Below are positions 2,931-40,089 of a stretch of 64,000 bases of DNA, in pieces. The first letter of the stretch is position 1. The number at the start of each line of letters is the position of its first letter. The notes beneath the pieces were generated by a model. The model was not told the DNA's origin. It saw only the letters and a program-made list of their open reading frames with translations, and ran no database searches. Made by a program: the position numbers and the translations under genes. The DNA is from a virus. The stretch is from positions 32,001 to 96,000 of the IMG/VR virus record IMGVR_UViG_3300050821_001428; one strand, written 5' to 3'.

Positions 2931-5900
2931 TTAGCGTCTACCGCGCGAATTTATTCGATTCCCGCCACCGTTCCTGCGCATACCAATAGATCCTCGCGCC
3001 GGATTGCCGCCAGATCGTTCGGCGCGGGAGCGTTCTATATTACCTTGTGAATAATAATAGCTACCATCAGTGTTCATAGGCATTGGGGCACCATTTGGAT
3101 AATTATTTTGTCCCATACCATACCCTCCAGGTGCGCCGCCGACCACTGATGCTTGAGATAACCGCTCACGCATAGTCTGAATCTGTAGATTACCTAGTAG
3201 TGCCCATACTACATCGATTACAGCATCTGCCATATCCTTGGTTTGTACCGGGCCGAGGTCTTGTTTGTCTACGCGGGGGAATTTACCACTAGTTTGAACC
3301 TGCTGTAAGAACTTTAATTCTTCTTTCGAAGTATAACTGTCGATTTCCTCATCATTTGGAGCATGTACTAATCCTTGATACAAGGCTGTTTTAAATACCT
3401 CGCATTTCTTCCAGTTTAACTCCGCAGTTGTAGGTCGCACATAGACCTGACAAGTAATATTTTCTTTATGTAACCTATCTTGAATATCCTGTAATGGGGA
3501 CGAGCTATTATGACTAATGATACCATTAGCTACAAATAGTTCTGGGCCGGGTACAACAAGATCAAAACAATTTGCCGTAGACTCTACAATTGAATCAATA
3601 CGGAAATATTGTAAATCTCCTTCTCTATTCAACTTGGATCTTTTACCAACATCCTTACGACGGCTAATTTGATCTACAATGGCAGATAGTTTATGATTTT
3701 TTCTATCAGAGCAGAAACCAATCTTTTTATGGAATTCTAGAATGTCTAAACCGAACATTTTGACACGCCATTCTTGCTGAGGGGTGCCCTTATAAGTGCT
3801 TGCCGCCCCATTCCAAATAGTCGAATATATTCCTAAATTTAACAATAACTGTTGAATACCCTTGGCTAATGCAGCGCTTCTGGTACTACATCCCACAATT
3901 TCATCATTGTGTCTGGAATTAACAGCCCAACCATCACCTTCAAAATAAGCCTTTAAAAAGTTTACGATTACTGATTCTGGGGATTGAAAAATAGCCCAGG
4001 GCACCTCTTTGATATAGGAGTCACCAAAGCATCCTAACTGCGTGAACATTTTAGAGATATATCCCGATGCAGCAATTGATCCATACATAGTGTCAATCTG
4101 TCCGCCTTGAGGTGTTGTATTATGCTTTAGTTCATACCTATATGACCAATCGCCCCCAAAGGTTCTCTCTGCCGCATCCTTATACATATCTAAATAGGTT
4201 TTATCTGAGTTACTAAAACATATATTGGATTCATTAACATAACCTTCGGCTGTTAGCGCCCCCAGTATAAATCCAATATCTTCATTTAATTGTGTGGGGT
4301 ACAAACAACCTTTACGCCTAGAATGCTGTCTCTTCCAATCCAAAACAGCATTATAAGCTAATTTTTCGGTATCAAATCTTCCAATTGTGATTTGATGGTT
4401 GTTTTTGGAGACATTCGCAACCCAATGTTGTTTCGTCTCTGGATTATAACTGACACCTACATATTTAGAACTACCAGAGCCAGTTGGGTGATATTTTTTA
4501 ATATCAACATAGTTTGTTGCTGTCACGTTGTTTTTGCGCACAGCAACATAATCACCCTTTTCAATTTCAGCAATTTCTAACCATTCCCACTTATTGGATT
4601 TATGCCAAGGCTTTATTTTGTTCTTACGAACCCAAAGTCTATGGTCAGTGGTTCCTTCTATACTGTATCCAGGTTTGGTTGTAAGGATTCTCGTTGGCAC
4701 ATGACCTCTGTTGTAAATCTCAGTGGCAGTCACTATCCCTTCCATCGTTTGTACTGGTATATTAATAGTTTTGGTTTTACCTACAGGTAATTCGCCAGCT
4801 AGCTCTTTCAGTGTTTTATTACCACCAATGGTTGGAATCAAAGTGTTTTCATTGAGACATTGGTGTTGGTCCATGGTAATTTCGAATGGATGGAAAATCT
4901 TAGCATAAGTAATAATTTCATCAATAATAGGTGCCCAACGGATAACCTTATTTGGCTGCTTAGAAGGATTCCATCGTTTTATTAAATCGAATACGCAGTG
5001 TTCATTATCTAGACCGGTGACCGGATCGGGCAGGTATTCAATGTGTCCAATGGCAAATCCAAATCCAGCGGTGGTAGAAGAAGGGTCCAAGTGGAATTTA
5101 TAACGATGAAAGCCTGTGTTAATACCGACACCATAGTTGGTAGAAAATGGTTCGTATCCCAACACCATGTCTCCATTCGGCTGGCGCACCAAGCCTATTG
5201 GACGACCATTATACATGCGATCTACCATTGATGGATTTAACCAAGCTTCAGAGATTTCAGCAAATTTACCACGACGCTCAACCTTGTAGGTTTCGGGATC
5301 GGCTGCTTCGGAAGCTCGCGCCTGAATAATAGCGGCCTTATCCTCTTGGCTGAATAACGGACGATCCTGTTCATCCACCTCATCGGGATTCCAATCAGGA
5401 GACACTGTAACCATCTTACCGAGCATCTTGCCTCTGGTACGTGGTTTATATTGTGATTTATAGTAACGATATCCTTCAAACAAAGCCCATGATGGTCCTT
5501 GGAATACAAGACGACGAGGATCACCATTGATTCTTTGATCTGCCAGGTCACTATCGTCGCCCTGAAGCTCGATAGTCATTAGGTCTACAGGCCGGGTCTG
5601 ATCAAATGGCATTAGTCCTAATTCATATAGATCGTGAAACATTCCAACCTTAGAATAAGGTGATGAATTAATGAATAATAATCCATCGGTACCGAACTGA
5701 TCGAGCGATGGACCAGCCGCATTATATACCTCACCAGCCGATGACTTGCTTTCACCAGCGATCATGTGGGCAGCCTCATCGATCGTGACACAATTATGCG
5801 TAATAATCATATCATCAGTAACATATAATCCATTCACATTTGAAACCGTAATACATTGTTGTACGGCCTCTCCTATATATTCAACGTTAACAAGAGCACG

Positions 5901-10151: not shown

Positions 10152-10462
10152 TTTTCCTAGCTCCTATTAGCCGCCGTTCTGGTTTATGCTAACATCTGTC
10201 TCGGGTTACCCCGGCCACGGCATTATCCGTAAACGTGGTCTATCTCCACGATGGCTGCCCTCTACCTTGTGACCTTAGTTTCCCTTAGGTCAGCATCTTG
10301 AGGTCATATCATATGCCGACTAGCTAGGTTCAAACGGATTTCCCCTCCCTGATCTAGTCTCATCTTTACCGGCTTGATTAGGGCCGATCCCCTTTCAGGG
10401 ACACGATAAGGCGAACTTCCTCGATGGATTGGTTACCGCCGCGTTAGCTCGGAACTATGAAA
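10152..10462 (-). ncRNA. rnpB: Putative RNase P RNA
   Basis: CR-I GAGGAAGUUCGCC and CR-V ACCAGAACGGCGGCUAAU form P4 with a bulged U. P1 UAGUUCC/GGAGCUA. P2 GCUAAC/GUUAGC preceded by CR-IV-like ACAGAU. Confidence 0.8.
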
Positions 10463-14717: not shown

Positions 14718-15053
14718 TCAGACCGCATGGGTGCCTTCGACACCACGGGCTTCACGCGCGGTGGTGCGCTCTTGTAACTTATCAAGAGCCTCCCCAAGCA
14801 GTACGAGTGCCTGCGCGTTGTAATCGCAGGCGAACTTGGTTGATTGGTAGAACTCAATCCGGTCGACAGCGGCGGCGATCACGCCCTCTACAAACGCACC
14901 GTTCGGCTCTAGGCGGACCCCGCCGCGCGTGAGCATGTGTTCGGCAAGCGGCCCGTTCTGCCATCCGATCGTAAAGCCGACGCCGTAGGTCGTGCCACCG
15001 GCTGGATTTCCGTCGTCGTCAGTGAAGTGATGGCTCTCGATTGTCTGCAACAT
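14718..15053 (-). CDS. tad1: Tad1-like anti-defence nucleotide sponge
   Basis: WQNGP...NGAFVEGVIAAAVDRIEFYQ..KFACDYNAQAL..LGEAL..LQERT..REARGVEGT follows the Tad1 pattern as recalled. SD AGGAG at 15062-15066; the track's N-terminal extension overlaps a tRNA. Confidence 0.7.
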   Translation of the reverse strand: MLQTIESHHFTDDDGNPAGGTTYGVGFTIGWQNGPLAEHMLTRGGVRLEPNGAFVEGVIAAAVDRIEFYQSTKFACDYNAQALVLLGEALDKLQERTTAREARGVEGTHAV

Positions 15054-15124
15054 CACAGTAACTCCTTTTCTCTCGATTAACGAAATATTGTCAGTATATC
15101 TTTCATCTTGATTGAATTGTACAG

Positions 15125-15208
15125 TGCCGATGGAGGGAGTCGAACCCTCACGTCTGTCAAGACACTGGGATTTGAAGCCAGCATGTATACCAATTTCATC
15201 ACATCGGC
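15125..15208 (-). tRNA. tRNA-Leu(CAA)
   Basis: Loop TTCAAAT with C31-C39 mismatch, long variable arm. Confidence 0.85.
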
Positions 15209-15277
15209 TTGTCTGGTTGCGTGATTTTATCAAGCTAGCATCATATTATTACACGCCATTACCTGCTGCCACGACCA

Positions 15278-15316
15278 TAGCACCACGGAGAATCGAACTC
15301 CGATTACAAGATTGAA
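15278..15316 (-). pseudogene. 3'-half remnant of a tRNA (probably Glu TTC)
   Basis: TTCAATCTTG-TAAT-CGGAG-TTCGATT-CTCCG-TGGTGCTA with no 5' half. Confidence 0.6.
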
Positions 15317-15323
15317 CTATTTA

Positions 15324-15397
15324 TAGCTCCAGCGGGGTTCGAACCCGCAATCTTTTCCTTGAAAGGGAAACGAGATAAACCATTACTCTATGGAGCC
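15324..15397 (-). tRNA. tRNA-Glu(TTC)
   Basis: TTTCC-CTTTCAA-GGAAA arm. Confidence 0.9.
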
Positions 15398-15522
15398 AAG
15401 ATTTTCTAGTACGACCTACAAGTATAGCAGAGGGCGCTCATACAGTGTCAATTTCCGCATCGCTTGTATCTAGGTGCCATATTTTCATCCACAAAGAAAT
15501 ACCACCGACTCTTTTGATGAAT

Positions 15523-15794
15523 TTATCAGGCCGGATTACGACCCTACAACGCTCCAAGGTTTGAGGTTATCGCACGATCCGCCCGGTTCCTGCGCTCCCT
15601 CTTAGTAGGCCCAGATACCCTGGGTTCGGTGCGAGAATTTTGGCCCGGCGTGTTCCGGATCAAGTCTCGCCCGACAGCACTGTGCCGGTTCGTCATGAAA
15701 ATCATGTAGCACATGTGTTGGGCGGCAAGTTCGATAACTTCAAACCTTGGAGCGTTGTAGGGGAAGCTTTTCAAGGCTCGCATTTTCCTGACAA
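15523..15794 (-). ncRNA. Unknown structured RNA with a 31-bp stem and 44-nt identity to the resolvase gene
   Basis: Inverted repeat 15542-15572 / 15732-15762 (30/31), outer 8-bp stem 15523-15530 / 15787-15794. 15686-15729 is identical to 38080-38123. Strand inferred from flanking tRNAs. Confidence 0.7.
15686..15729 (+). repeat. 44-bp exact direct repeat, copy 1 (copy 2 at 38080-38123)
   Basis: CGGTTCGTCATGAAAATCATGTAGCACATGTGTTGGGCGGCAAG is present at both loci. Confidence 0.97.
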
Positions 15795-15796
15795 CA

Positions 15797-15838
15797 GTCC
15801 AGATGAGAGGAATCGAACCTCCACCGGGGGTTAGCCCG
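15797..15838 (-). pseudogene. tRNA 3' fragment (T arm plus acceptor strand)
   Basis: GAGG-TTCGATT-CCTC-TCATCTGGAC with no matching 5' half. Confidence 0.5.
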
Positions 15839-15841
15839 TAA

Positions 15842-15931
15842 CGGAAGGTACGGGGATCGAACCCGTAAGGCACTTTCGTGCTCGTCACTTTTCGAGAGTG
15901 GTCCCATCGCCAACCATTGGGTTGCCCTTCC
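15842..15931 (-). tRNA. tRNA-Ser(CGA)
   Basis: CACT-CTCGAAA-AGTG arm, long variable arm, G73. Confidence 0.9.
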
Positions 15932-16047
15932 AAGAATTCATCATTCATTGCATGTTCATATGTGCAATTTATAGTTGATCTACCGTCAAGTTCGCATGGC
16001 ATAACGGTTTAGTAAACCGCTCCAATACCGTTATGGTTATATTTCCT

Positions 16048-16117
16048 TGGCACCAGTGAGGGGACTTTCACCGCCTATCTGCCCGTGGGCTATTCTAATA
16101 ATTAAACTACACTGATG
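16048..16117 (-). ncRNA. tRNA-like RNA lacking an anticodon loop
   Basis: Acceptor CATCAGTG/CACTGGTG plus CCA, D-like arm, stub GCCC-AC-GGGC, T-like arm. Confidence 0.55.
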
Positions 16118-16120
16118 TAG

Positions 16121-16206
16121 CGGAGGGACAGGGAATCGAACCCTGTGGACGCTCATCACGTTTTATACCGTTTCCAGCGATATTCCTAGCCATTTGGGTT
16201 CCCTCC
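16121..16206 (-). tRNA. tRNA-Ser(GGA)
   Basis: TATCG-CTGGAAA-CGGTA arm, long variable arm. Confidence 0.85.
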
Positions 16207-16649
16207 AAGTGTACGTTCCCGATGACAATTTAACACACTACTTCGCACTTGGCTATTTCTTCAAACAGCATAACTTCAGAGCGTCGAGTCGGGGAGCAGC
16301 ACTGCGTGACGCGCGCGTCCCACCTGCTGCTCGCGGATCATCATCGCGGACGGCATCTCGACGCACGGCAACCGACGACAACGGCTCCTGGGAGCCGTAC
16401 TGATCGAAGAAGCCGATCCGAATGCGCTTCTGGAGCGCACGATCACCGTAGTCAGTCATCAGAACGTGAAGTGTATGCCGTTGTCGGAATCCCGCCAGCC
16501 ACAGCTAGTTTACCAGAACTCATACGCGTAAGCCCTGGTCGAGAATAATATACATCACCGGATTCATATCTACAGTATAGCATATCAGACTAGAGTCGCC
16601 AACTTATGGTGACTCCTCATGCTCCTTCCGCCACAAGGTGGATGAGTCA

Positions 16650-16741
16650 CGGATAGAGTGGGGGTCGAACCCACAAGGGCTTATTCATCCTCGTCGCTTT
16701 TCAAGAGCGATGCCGTCGGCCAACTATCGGCTTGCCTATCC
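16650..16741 (-). tRNA. tRNA-Ser(TGA)
   Basis: TCGCT-CTTGAAA-AGCGA arm. Confidence 0.9.
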
Positions 16742-16746
16742 ATAAA

Positions 16747-16829
16747 AAGCCAGTGTGAGAATCGAACTCACTCCCCGTTATGGGCGATACGTGTTGCAGA
16801 CGCCGGTGTTACCATTCCACCAACTGGCC
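16747..16829 (-). tRNA. tRNA-Cys(GCA) with long variable arm
   Basis: GCGT-CTGCAAC-ACGT arm, U73, variable hairpin CCC-ATAAC-GGG. Confidence 0.8.
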
Positions 16830-16913
16830 GTTATACCCCAATTCCCCAAAAGGGCTGCTGCCGGTCGAGCTAATATTAGCCTTTACCTACTCGGGGTTTG
16901 ATAGGTAGCAAAG

Positions 16914-16986
16914 CTGCTCAGATAGGACTTGAACCTATAACCATCGCCTTAACAGGGCGTTGCACCGCCAATTGTGCTACTGAGCA
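16914..16986 (-). tRNA. tRNA-Asn(GTT)
   Basis: CGCC-CTGTTAA-GGCG arm. Confidence 0.9.
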
Positions 16987-17173
16987 TTGTTATTCCATCT
17001 TCAACTTCCATGTGACAATTTGAACATAATAAAATACATTTACTAGCTTCTGCTCTCATTTTAGCTAATCCAGGGATTTTACCCTTCCATGCTAAATGGA
17101 ACAACTTCGTAGTGGGATCTATATGGTGAAAATGTAAGGCTCTCATACATTTATCATATCCGCAAATCACACA
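16949..17173 (-). pseudogene. 5'-truncated HNH endonuclease
   Basis: CVICGY...LHFHHIDP..K...KCILLCSNCH. An in-frame TAG lies just upstream and the 3' end runs into tRNA-Asn. Confidence 0.65.
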
Positions 17174-17203
17174 GATTGTCCATAAAACCTATGATCCGTT
17201 AAG

Positions 17204-17293
17204 CAGAGGGTAGGGGATTCGAACCCCTGATACACGTCTAAGGTGTATGACGGTTTAGCAAACCGTTCTCGTCAGCCACTTGAGTAACCCTCT
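17204..17293 (-). tRNA. tRNA-Ser(GCT)
   Basis: ACGGT-TTGCTAA-ACCGT arm. Confidence 0.9.
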
Positions 17294-17300
17294 GAGACTA

Positions 17301-17379
17301 CAGTTCGATGACCACTGGTACACAATTAAGGTACGTCAATTTAGCAAACTGATGCAATCGGCCTCTCTGCCAACCTTCC
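17301..17379 (-). pseudogene. tRNA-Ser(GCT) 5' remnant
   Basis: GGAAGGTTGGCAGAGAGGCCGATTGCA-TCAGT-TTGCTAA-ATTGA plus variable arm; T arm and acceptor 3' strand are destroyed. Confidence 0.7.
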
Positions 17380-17383
17380 AATA

Positions 17384-18046
17384 CTATACTTCAATCATTA
17401 CCGGTGAATTAAGCGGTTGGTAACGTGCATCCATTATAGCAACATTCCAAACTTCGGTTTCGCCTAATTCGTAATGGCCGAATCCTTCATGAATATGCCC
17501 ACAAATGACATGCTTAGGTTTAATATCCCTAATCATCATGTCACACTGTGCCGATCCCACATGAGGATGTAGTGCGCTGATAACCTTGTCCGCTACTCCA
17601 TAAGGAGGTCCGTGGGTTATAACTACATCCGTATCGGTATCTACGGCCTTATACTTCTCGCTTAGAGTAGCATTATCTCCGTAAAACGCCCAACCCTTTA
17701 GATTGGGAACCCATGGAATACCATAGAATCGAATATCATCTACAATGATAGCCTCATCCTCAAGATAAGTCCATCCTACATCGTAGGTAGTGTCCTTTGC
17801 ATCACCAAATACTGCGTATCTATTCTCCAGAGCGAAATCATGGTTACCAGCGATTACCAATCGGTGTTTTGCTGGCATTTTCATGGTCCAGTCTGAAAAT
17901 TCATTTCTAATCCAACTAGTACAACGATCGGTATCACGATCGTACCGAATCGGACTAATATCCCCCGCTACCACCAGAATATCGGATTCTGGAACCGCTA
18001 CAGGCAAATAGCCATGTAGATCCGAAAGAGCACAAATTGTTGTCAT
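17384..18046 (-). CDS. Calcineurin-like metallophosphoesterase
   Basis: SDLHG, AGD, GNHD, THGPP and GHIHE motifs. Confidence 0.9.
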   Translation of the reverse strand: MTTICALSDLHGYLPVAVPESDILVVAGDISPIRYDRDTDRCTSWIRNEFSDWTMKMPAKHRLVIAGNHDFALENRYAVFGDAKDTTYDVGWTYLEDEAIIVDDIRFYGIPWVPNLKGWAFYGDNATLSEKYKAVDTDTDVVITHGPPYGVADKVISALHPHVGSAQCDMMIRDIKPKHVICGHIHEGFGHYELGETEVWNVAIMDARYQPLNSPVMIEV

Positions 18047-18057
18047 TTTTCCTTAAG

Positions 18058-18427
18058 TGGACCTGCTCGCATCGAAGCGAGGTGGCCCGTAATCGTCATC
18101 AGAGATTTAGTATAGCATCTTTCTAGGACAAGAGTTACTTCAAGGACAAGCAGAGCTTGTCTCCACCAACTTAGTCTACATCTTAGGGGCGACTAGTAAC
18201 CCCGATTCCTATGCTTCTGTTGACAGGTGCATAGACCCCGTTCTGGCTATTTAAGCAAGAACAGAAAGAACTTCACTTGCACGGATCTCGCTCTTTGCAG
18301 AGAAAGCGCCAGCAGGGATGTTCATAGGACGATATGATTCGCCAGTTAATTGTTTTGCGAGATTTAGGTGTCTCAAAACCGATGCAATTCTTAATTCGTT
18401 TTTACGAGATCGAAACCTTTCAGGCCC
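18058..18427 (-). ncRNA. ssrA: tmRNA
   Basis: 5' GGGCCTGAAAGGTTTCGA; 3' T arm CTCGC-TTCGAT-GCGAG then CAGGTCC-A (G3-U70, Ala identity). Tag frame after TTAACT at 18343-18251. Confidence 0.88.
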
Positions 18428-18917: not shown

Positions 18918-19008
18918 ATGGACTATTACATTTCTGTAACTATAACGGTCCTAAGTAGAAATCCTACCTACACGGTAATAGCGTAACATAACTTCGAACG
19001 CTGCCCAT
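18918..19008 (-). ncRNA. Putative small RNA with a loop complementary to 23S rRNA helix 69
   Basis: Nested stems AUGGGC/GUCCAU, UAUUAC/GUAAUA, AUUUCU/AGAAAU. The loop contains the reverse complement of GTAACTATAACGGTCCTAAG (18936-18955). Confidence 0.6.
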
Positions 19009-22303: not shown

Positions 22304-22339
22304 GCCCCTACGATAACAATTGATGTTTATCGTAGGGGC
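22304..22339. terminator. Strong hairpin (terminator or processing stem)
   Basis: GCCCCTACGATAA / TTATCGTAGGGGC 13-bp inverted repeat. Confidence 0.5.
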
Positions 22340-26580: not shown

Positions 26581-26716
26581 TATAGTTTTATTATTATTTA
26601 GTTTTTAGTTTTTTAGTTTTATTATTATTTAGTTTTTAAGTTTATAGTTTTATAAATAATTTAACTTCTTACTTAAGTAAGAAGTTTATTAAATAACCCT
26701 ACGGGTTATTTATTAT
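26581..26716. repeat. AT-rich repeat and palindrome tract at the strand switch (candidate origin)
   Basis: TAGTTTTATTATTATTTAGTTTT twice; palindrome AACTTCTTACTTAAGTAAGAAGTT; hairpin AAATAACCC-TAC-GGGTTATTT. Confidence 0.5.
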
Positions 26717-38048: not shown

Positions 38049-38411
38049 ATGGCTCATAGAGGGACTAAAAAAGAGCTATCGGTTCGTCATGAAAATCATG
38101 TAGCACATGTGTTGGGCGGCAAGCGTAGTAAGTCGTCGGGGGCATCTGTAACCGATAAGGGCGATGTTCGCGCTAATGACCTTGTTATAGAGTGTAAAAT
38201 GACAATGGGTCGCCTACCTACTTTTATAAGACAATTTGAAAAGGTTGCATCAGAAGCGTATGAAGAAGGGTTAACGCCCATGATGACACTTCGGTATTAT
38301 GATCCCGTTAGTATCATCTCTGATACTAACGGTTGGATAGATATAGCTGTTATGCTTTTGGGTGACGCCGGTGAACGAGAGGAAATATTTTATGCCGATA
38401 AAATTCGATAA
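38049..38411 (+). CDS. Holliday junction resolvase (PD-(D/E)XK)
   Basis: HE..VA..LGG...SGA....KGDV.....IECK. Confidence 0.75.
   Translation: MAHRGTKKELSVRHENHVAHVLGGKRSKSSGASVTDKGDVRANDLVIECKMTMGRLPTFIRQFEKVASEAYEEGLTPMMTLRYYDPVSIISDTNGWIDIAVMLLGDAGEREEIFYADKIR
38080..38123 (+). repeat. 44-bp exact direct repeat, copy 2 (codons 11-25 of the resolvase)
   Basis: Identical to 15686-15729. Confidence 0.97.
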
Positions 38412-39705: not shown

Positions 39706-40089
39706 TTGGAGATGGGACAAAGACTCTGGATCTGTAAAAGACAAGTAGACAAGATCAAATGTGGCCATGTGAACCCACGGCGCTTACAGCTATGTGAGAA
39801 ATGTGGGAAGCGTAGGCCAGCAACGAAGAAACCAGCACATATGGCTGTGCTGTCCGAGGTTACATACGAGCAATGTGTTGAGCGTTGGGGCGAGAAGTGC
39901 GGAATCTGCGGGGTGACTCGTAAACCGGGCGCTAGACGTTTAAATCGTGACCACTCACATATTGATGGAACCCTAAGAGGACTTCTATGTACCCGTTGTA
40001 ACCGCGCCCTACATTCGTATATGGATTTAGAATGGATAGAGAATGCCGCAGCTTACCTGAGACGGGCTACGAAAGATATCGATATTTAA
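39706..40089 (+). CDS. Endonuclease VII-family protein
   Basis: CGICG...LNRDHSH..G.LRGLLCTRCN. Confidence 0.85.
   Translation: MEMGQRLWICKRQVDKIKCGHVNPRRLQLCEKCGKRRPATKKPAHMAVLSEVTYEQCVERWGEKCGICGVTRKPGARRLNRDHSHIDGTLRGLLCTRCNRALHSYMDLEWIENAAAYLRRATKDIDI

Follow-up and report, generated by a model that had tools for sequence, protein, structure and literature searches.

A stem-enclosed element in a phage tRNA array carries an exact copy of part of the phage's own resolvase gene

Among phage RNAs that act by base pairing on the phage's own messages, OOP RNA of lambda promotes RNase III-dependent decay of cII mRNA, and OOP, like sar of P22, has long, perfect complementarity to an mRNA of its own phage (PMC12197685). 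OOP and sar are read opposite the locus that they target. A review describes small RNAs encoded in trans as pairing through short and imperfect stretches, and those encoded in cis as pairing through long and perfect ones (PMC12197685). The C4 RNA of phages P1 and P7 is processed from a longer transcript and represses a gene of its own phage by base pairing; it is ~77 nt long, with three stem-loops and two short loops (a' and b') that act at a ribosome-binding site (PMC5320573). The element described here shares with OOP and sar a long, perfect match to a gene of its own phage, but it is not encoded opposite that gene: the copy lies 22.4 kb away, in a tRNA array, inside a folded frame of ~270 nt. 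Compared with C4, it presents one perfect 44-nt block drawn from within a coding region, and no family in Rfam, C4 included, matches it at gathering or E-value thresholds.

Anatomy and setting of the element

The window analysed is a stretch of 64,000 nt, bases 32001-96000 of the 144,267-bp record of a soil phage (44.8% G+C, ~90% complete). On its minus strand is an array of 33 tRNA genes, interspersed with several HNH genes, and on its plus strand a replication operon encoding DNA polymerase III alpha, RecA, a 120-aa resolvase and a Cas4-like exonuclease; an endonuclease VII-family protein is encoded as well (39706-40089). Related phages, all uncultured, reach ~170 kb and show gene synteny, and cultured phages are only distantly related (RecA ~28-30%). 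The distant similarity of its RecA to those of mycobacteriophage and Rhodococcus phage makes an actinobacterial host probable. Those lineage-specific ORFs that were checked comprise an AAA+/metallopeptidase pair, a glycosyltransferase, HNH proteins and unknowns. A 108-aa gene within the array (14718-15044, minus strand) belongs to a very large family (766 hits, most with PF24729, which we take to be Acb2/Tad1-like) and is represented by a contig in RNA run X2, introduced below. Just upstream of the array, a 36-nt near-perfect palindrome (22304-22339) has short words in common with the ends of the element's long stem and is probably a terminator or processing hairpin.

The element occupies 15523-15794, between tRNA genes that all lie on the minus strand. 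Its positions 15686-15729 are identical to 38080-38123 over 44 nt, as a direct repeat with a sharp break at both ends. The matching stretch corresponds to codons 11-25 (bases +32 to +75) of the resolvase ORF (38049-38411, plus strand, downstream of recA), and all 44 bases agree, third codon positions included. An exact repeat of this length is expected by chance ~1e-16 times in 144 kb, and this copy is the sole dispersed, non-repetitive repeat longer than 20 nt in the genome, the other long repeats being low-complexity or collagen-like. Two nucleotides beyond the copy begins one arm of a long stem, an inverted repeat formed by 15542-15572 and 15732-15762 in which 30 of 31 positions pair and the exception is a G-U on the plus strand. 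On a minus-strand RNA, 15732-15762 would be the 5' arm and 15542-15572 the 3' arm. An outer stem joins 15523-15530 to 15787-15794 (seven of eight pairs Watson-Crick, the remaining one a G-U on the minus strand). Between the first long arm and the copy lie an inward continuation of the arm (15573-15584), two small hairpins (15589-15609 and 15610-15624) and a long interrupted hairpin (15626-15674) with GCGAGA/TCTCGC and CCGG/CCGG stems. The original prediction, made from the letters alone, had named the exact self-copy and its abrupt ends, the near-perfect 31-bp inverted repeat, the outer 8-bp stem and the inner hairpins, and each of these proved to be present. Folding z-scores against shuffles are -8.5 (plus) and -9.2 (minus) for the whole element, a moderate -2.8/-3.9 for the 159-nt interior alone and a modest -1.3 to -2.6 for the scaffold without the copy.

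The copied gene is that of the phage Holliday-junction resolvase, as shown by a match to PHROG 2002 (E 2e-12). Pfam Hjc matches are weak and occur in 4 of 17 homologues; residues E15, D39, E48 and K50 are invariant among the homologues, and no solved structure was found to match the resolvase profile. The PD-(D/E)XK assignment made beforehand is thus supported. Relatives without the element conserve the copied codons at the protein level, which makes the gene the source and the copy in the array the derivative.

The scaffold appears tailored to the sequence that it carries. The 18 nt adjoining the copy (15668-15685) repeat 16 of its bases in inverted, degenerate form, with 15 matches and two 1-nt insertions, and sequester 15709-15724. 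A match this good to the adjacent 25 nt was equalled by 30 of 20000 random and 70 of 20000 shuffled 44-mers, and against the whole scaffold by 274-338 of 20000. The long stem, too, runs on in register into the copy, 15573-15584 being complementary to 15720-15731 at 8 of 12 positions, including a 6-bp helix with the copy end. The pairing energy between scaffold and copy was reached by 1-3 of 500 random 44-mers and by 6-15 of 500 shuffles. The inverted-copy and pairing tests were chosen after inspection of the sequence, but they agree in direction. Pairing beyond chance between the scaffold and the copied sequence argues against a swappable guide; the element is probably a dedicated structure built by local inverted duplication, rather than a frame for exchangeable inserts. 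Supposing that the degenerate inverted copies were exact at the outset, selection or gene conversion would be needed to explain why they decayed while core and stem stayed perfect.

Relatives, strand and neighboring RNAs

The nearest relative identified shares 78% identity in a cluster protein and 65% in the resolvase; there, tRNA-Phe and tRNA-Ile(GAU) fill the slot of the element, and homology resumes on both sides. A tRNA-Phe is present in all 14 of the near-complete related clusters scored, and also in L146-L148, yet none was recovered from the array of this phage even by a relaxed search. No homologue was found in ~20 related tRNA clusters, and no related cluster contains a long inverted repeat with a similar spacer. 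Fourteen related genome records, eight of them with arrays of more than 10 tRNAs, contain no comparable self-copy or stem, and the longest exact match between the resolvase locus and the tRNA cluster of the same relative is 17 bases (n=10 pairs). Three relatives (L006-L008) are represented by tRNA clusters fetched through a cluster gene. In another relative (L001), a block at 15062-17679 in genome coordinates, which includes a DNA methyltransferase-like gene, is apparently of higher G+C as judged by eye from its ORFs, which suggests a recent acquisition.

Searches for homologues of the scaffold were similarly empty. Blastn with the element returned no match among phages and plasmids, nor among 39 related records, mostly fragments; all relatives searched share at most 90% identity with this phage. 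Arm and hairpin patterns run against IMG/VR found no homologue, the two hits being chance matches in coding regions, and a 20-mer of the arm found none in GTDB. Searching with gapped arm-pair patterns produced 41 viral and 24 bacterial hits, approximately the number expected by chance; the four with longer pairing proved to be unrelated REP-like palindromes, and in one Aquirufa REP 16 of 18 nt agree with the arm, 10 of them dictated by the pattern. A single-sequence covariance model, an insensitive tool for which the window is the only positive control, found nothing in 61 sources or 30 records. The original prediction had proposed looking for scaffold homologues with a variable self-matching segment, and for further scaffolds in the same genome. 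The databases and relatives listed above yielded no homologue, and this genome no second copy. The element thus appears confined to this lineage and, being a singleton, provides no covariation or conservation evidence.

As to strand, the genomic context favors minus. The best upstream promoter, a predicted sigma70-type consensus match at 16602-16574, is on the minus strand ~780 nt upstream, with no predicted minus-strand terminator before the element, and no plus-strand promoter is predicted within 1 kb upstream. Given the strand of the tRNAs and of this promoter, an RNA from the element would be antisense to the resolvase mRNA. The wobble pairs had been said to leave the strand unsettled, and so they do: four non-Watson-Crick positions, within the long stem and interior, form G-U pairs in a plus-strand RNA, and two in the outer stems do so in a minus-strand one, a count that is biased because some interior helices were defined from the plus-strand fold.

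The array contains further unusual RNAs. In the minus-strand direction, the element is immediately preceded by an ancestral tRNA-Ser (15803-16046) that has been split by an insertion of ~160 bp bounded by a 6-bp direct repeat (16002-16007 and 15839-15844), so that its 3' half is now 15803-15844 and its old 5' half has an ACT anticodon. The insert carries a different, intact tRNA-Ser(CGA) at 15841-15932, which default ARAGORN missed. Next to it, 16050-16117 (minus) resembles a tRNA, with a T-loop of GUGAAA type and a reduced anticodon arm; L043 has a fuller tRNA-like version in the same place (5214-5285). A small element at 18918-19008 (minus), presumably carrying the complement of 23S rRNA helix 69, is, in contrast to the element with the 44-nt copy, conserved in the two closest relatives (L043 1581-1642, L044 6360-6375), where its 16-nt core is exact and its flanks diverge, and it may be the more robust RNA family in the array. 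Minus-strand tmRNA-like (18060-18420) and RNase P-like (10158-10457) RNAs fall below Rfam and ARAGORN thresholds in this genome, although they have counterparts in relatives and ARAGORN calls the tmRNAs of L043 and L044.

Explanations of the element

Our tentative preference, with a little less than an even chance of being right, is for a young, lineage-specific antisense RNA that is co-transcribed with the tRNAs, pairs perfectly in trans with the mRNA of the resolvase and brings about its cleavage by RNase III. The element would have begun with the capture of 44 nt of the gene, around which local inverted duplications would then have built stems. Transcribed with the tRNA operon, the RNA would be released by tRNA processing and by RNase III cutting of the 31-bp stem. 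Two 6-nt stretches of the copy, predicted to be unpaired on the minus strand, would serve as toeholds that zip into a 44-bp duplex at +32 to +75 of the resolvase frame, with a predicted net binding of ~-43 kcal/mol after both partners open. A duplex at this position is too deep in the coding sequence to block initiation, so RNase III cleavage would be the route, as with OOP RNA on cII; the 44-bp duplex and the 31-bp stem are both long enough for this enzyme. The outcome would be less resolvase, or later resolvase, during recombination-dependent replication, which should be tolerable since the phage also encodes the endonuclease VII-family protein.

Several observations speak for this antisense RNA: the perfect 44/44 core and the 30/31 stem stand beside inverted copies that differ (8 of 12; 15 of 16 with two insertions), and the element has displaced a tRNA-Phe that all scored near-complete related clusters possess. 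The scaffold-copy pairing energy, the folding of the interior relative to shuffles, the predicted binding to the mRNA with its toeholds, and the minus strand of the flanking tRNAs and best promoter also favor it, as does, weakly, the presence of the interior in an X2 contig. Other observations weigh against it. The element is a singleton; the copy, in part sequestered, lies within a closed loop and would need processing; the internal wobbles favor plus, on which the RNA would be sense, and the two outer ones minus; and known trans-encoded small RNAs usually pair over short, imperfect stretches (PMC12197685). Of the original proposal of a scaffold plus a guide acting as a trans antisense repressor, the antisense part survives as the best single explanation; the exchangeable guide, with no second scaffold and no homologue bearing another guide found, is not supported.

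The main rival, somewhat less likely, is that the element is a non-functional rearrangement scar. In a rearrangement-prone tRNA array, repair or template switching would have deleted tRNA-Phe and tRNA-Ile and pasted in foreign GC-rich DNA together with 44 nt of the resolvase gene; snap-back synthesis would account for the inverted repeats, and a recent event, or gene conversion mediated by the RecA that the phage encodes, for the preserved identity. The element's uniqueness to this genome, the split tRNA-Ser next door, the HNH genes in the array, the modest folding of the scaffold alone and the disagreement of the wobble pairs on strand all fit such an accident. A very recent origin, however, leaves unexplained the differing inverted copies beside a near-perfect copy and stem, and no such scar occurs in the other related genomes. 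Nor was a source of the scaffold or arms found elsewhere in the genome, the best match being reached by 11 of 300 shuffles; derivation of the scaffold from an inverted tRNA was likewise rejected (best score reached by 26 of 200 shuffles).

We consider it unlikely that the functional product is a plus-strand, sense RNA, either standing in for the copied segment of the resolvase mRNA (decoy or target mimic) or serving as a retron-like template from which a host reverse transcriptase makes antisense ssDNA that might also write the sequence back into the resolvase gene. The four internal wobbles favor plus, and the plus-strand order of arm, hairpins, copied segment and arm resembles that of retron ncRNAs. 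In addition, the resolvase has Leu at position 22, within the copied stretch, where 16 of 16 homologues have Phe or Tyr, and its Val21-Leu22 (38109-38114) replaces a Leu-Phe pair that is invariant in the seven closest homologues. The Leu22 difference alone is not significant, and although the copied window is the one most diverged from the close clade (-0.14), a second resolvase window diverges nearly as much (-0.12) and the signal is not significant. Against a sense RNA also stand the lack of a reverse transcriptase in the genome (PF00078 is absent from the 90%-complete record, and a motif scan gave no plausible YxDD protein), the lack of an Rfam match, and the want of a plus promoter within 1 kb for a transcript that would oppose the tRNA operon. 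Four further readings of the locus were tried and set aside: a C/D-box or K-turn RNA (box C-like and box D-like words occur on plus, but with no canonical flanking stem and no Nop protein), a mimic of 16S helix 24 (an 11-nt match, against an estimated ~0.5 expected), a plus-strand peptide in frame with the resolvase piece (the frame is open, but a convincing start or promoter is absent), and the 152-codon minus ORF 15544-16002 as a gene (no family).

There is also a small chance that the element is the first example encountered of an RNA-guided or RNA-templated system not yet described, by which a phage writes a piece of its own gene into a folded RNA and a host or unassembled protein then uses it to silence or rewrite that gene. 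Under RNA templating, the RNA copy may have changed the gene itself, giving Leu22 in place of an otherwise invariant aromatic.

Still less probable is an orphan guide RNA with an exchangeable guide, whose protein partner would be supplied by the host or encoded in the ~10% of the genome that is missing. The sharp ends 2 nt from the stem and the layout of guide plus hairpins would suit it, as does the incompleteness of the record. In the 90%-complete genome, however, no TnpB/Cas12f, Nop-domain protein (Nop/Tas), Y1 transposase or Ro60 (TROVE) was detected by searches whose controls were positive; the RRXRR search for IscB is uninformative, as its controls were blank too. Neither this genome nor its relatives hold a sister scaffold with another guide, the scaffold is tailored to its insert, and a nuclease with such a guide would cleave a gene of its own phage. 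Guides of TnpB, IscB, bridge and TIGR RNAs are, moreover, shorter than 44 nt. The original prediction had offered a guide for an RNA-guided protein and a retron/DGR-like template as further readings, and had proposed looking for reverse transcriptase or RNA-guided nuclease genes elsewhere in the genome; with none of these (reverse transcriptase, TnpB/Cas12f, Nop) found, both readings have lost support.

An assembly artefact, the outcome that would have undone the original prediction, deserves hardly any weight: the contig is metagenomic and Logan DNA run X1 may be the same sample, but in the separate assembly of X1 the 44-mer forms its own unitig with both flank pairs and the two contexts at equal depth, an RNA run from a different study (X2) has a 151-nt contig (15583-15733, one difference) across the scaffold-copy junction, the resolvase reading frame runs intact through the repeat and keeps its homology there, and the copy is enclosed by stem arms. 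The X2 contig, of depth 2.5, about one read long and unstranded, could be DNA carry-over and gives no more than a hint of expression. Recombination between the two direct copies (15730-38123) would excise a 22.4-kb circle with half of the tRNA array, ribonucleotide reductase, AT-rich repeats (26581-26690) and the replication genes through recA; no joint from such an event was seen in run X1. An invertible switch between the arms was also considered and rejected, no joint being present in X1 (depth ~9, hence low power).

Comparison with described RNA systems

Retron msr-msd regions resemble the element in that terminal inverted repeats, here the 31-bp stem, enclose hairpins, in an order that fits on plus; unlike a retron, this genome has neither reverse transcriptase nor effector, and we found no literature describing a self-gene copy in a natural retron. 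The template repeats of DGRs are likewise non-coding copies of part of a gene in the same genome. Here, in contrast, reverse transcriptase and Avd are lacking, the 44-nt copy comes from the 5' end of the gene, and the copies are identical, with no adenine-specific differences. Stand-alone OMEGA (TnpB/IscB), TldR and TIGR RNAs share the folded RNA, the guide-like segment and a location remote from the effector. The element's guide is, however, internal, 44 nt long and self-targeting, in a genome where no TnpB or Nop-domain protein was found. Where OMEGA and TldR RNAs have a conserved scaffold with a variable terminal guide, the element has no homologue, and the repeated dual-spacer units that accompany the Nop-domain protein of TIGR-Tas do not occur in the genome.

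Bacterial Y RNAs (YrlA) have a long stem formed by the 5' and 3' ends (PMC4201824), as does the element. They differ in their Ro60 partner, absent from this genome, and at this locus a YrlA match, an exact GNCGAAN(0-1)G motif at the 5' arm and a tRNA-like domain are all missing. Ro60 (TROVE) genes do occur inside the tRNA arrays of some relatives (L146 11910-13388, L148 11979-13385), with no YrlA match found near them. MITE- or REP-type elements are a poor fit as well, the element being single-copy, with no duplication at its ends and no Y1 transposase in the genome.

By the features tested, then, the element falls outside OOP, C4, retrons, DGRs, OMEGA, TIGR and Y RNAs, and no description matching it was found in the literature. 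Since it is known from a single genome and lacks a partner protein, the element gives no indication so far of a programmable tool or of a widespread system. A functional element would capture the birth of a regulatory RNA through the copying of a piece of its own target gene, would mark tRNA arrays as ready-made expression cassettes for such RNAs, and would hint that a lytic phage gains by restraining its junction resolvase. Encoded in trans yet complementary without a mismatch, it would also fall outside the customary division into cis and trans RNAs (PMC12197685). By analogy, such an RNA would act like OOP, through a long perfect duplex and RNase III, and be arranged like C4, processed and trans-acting.
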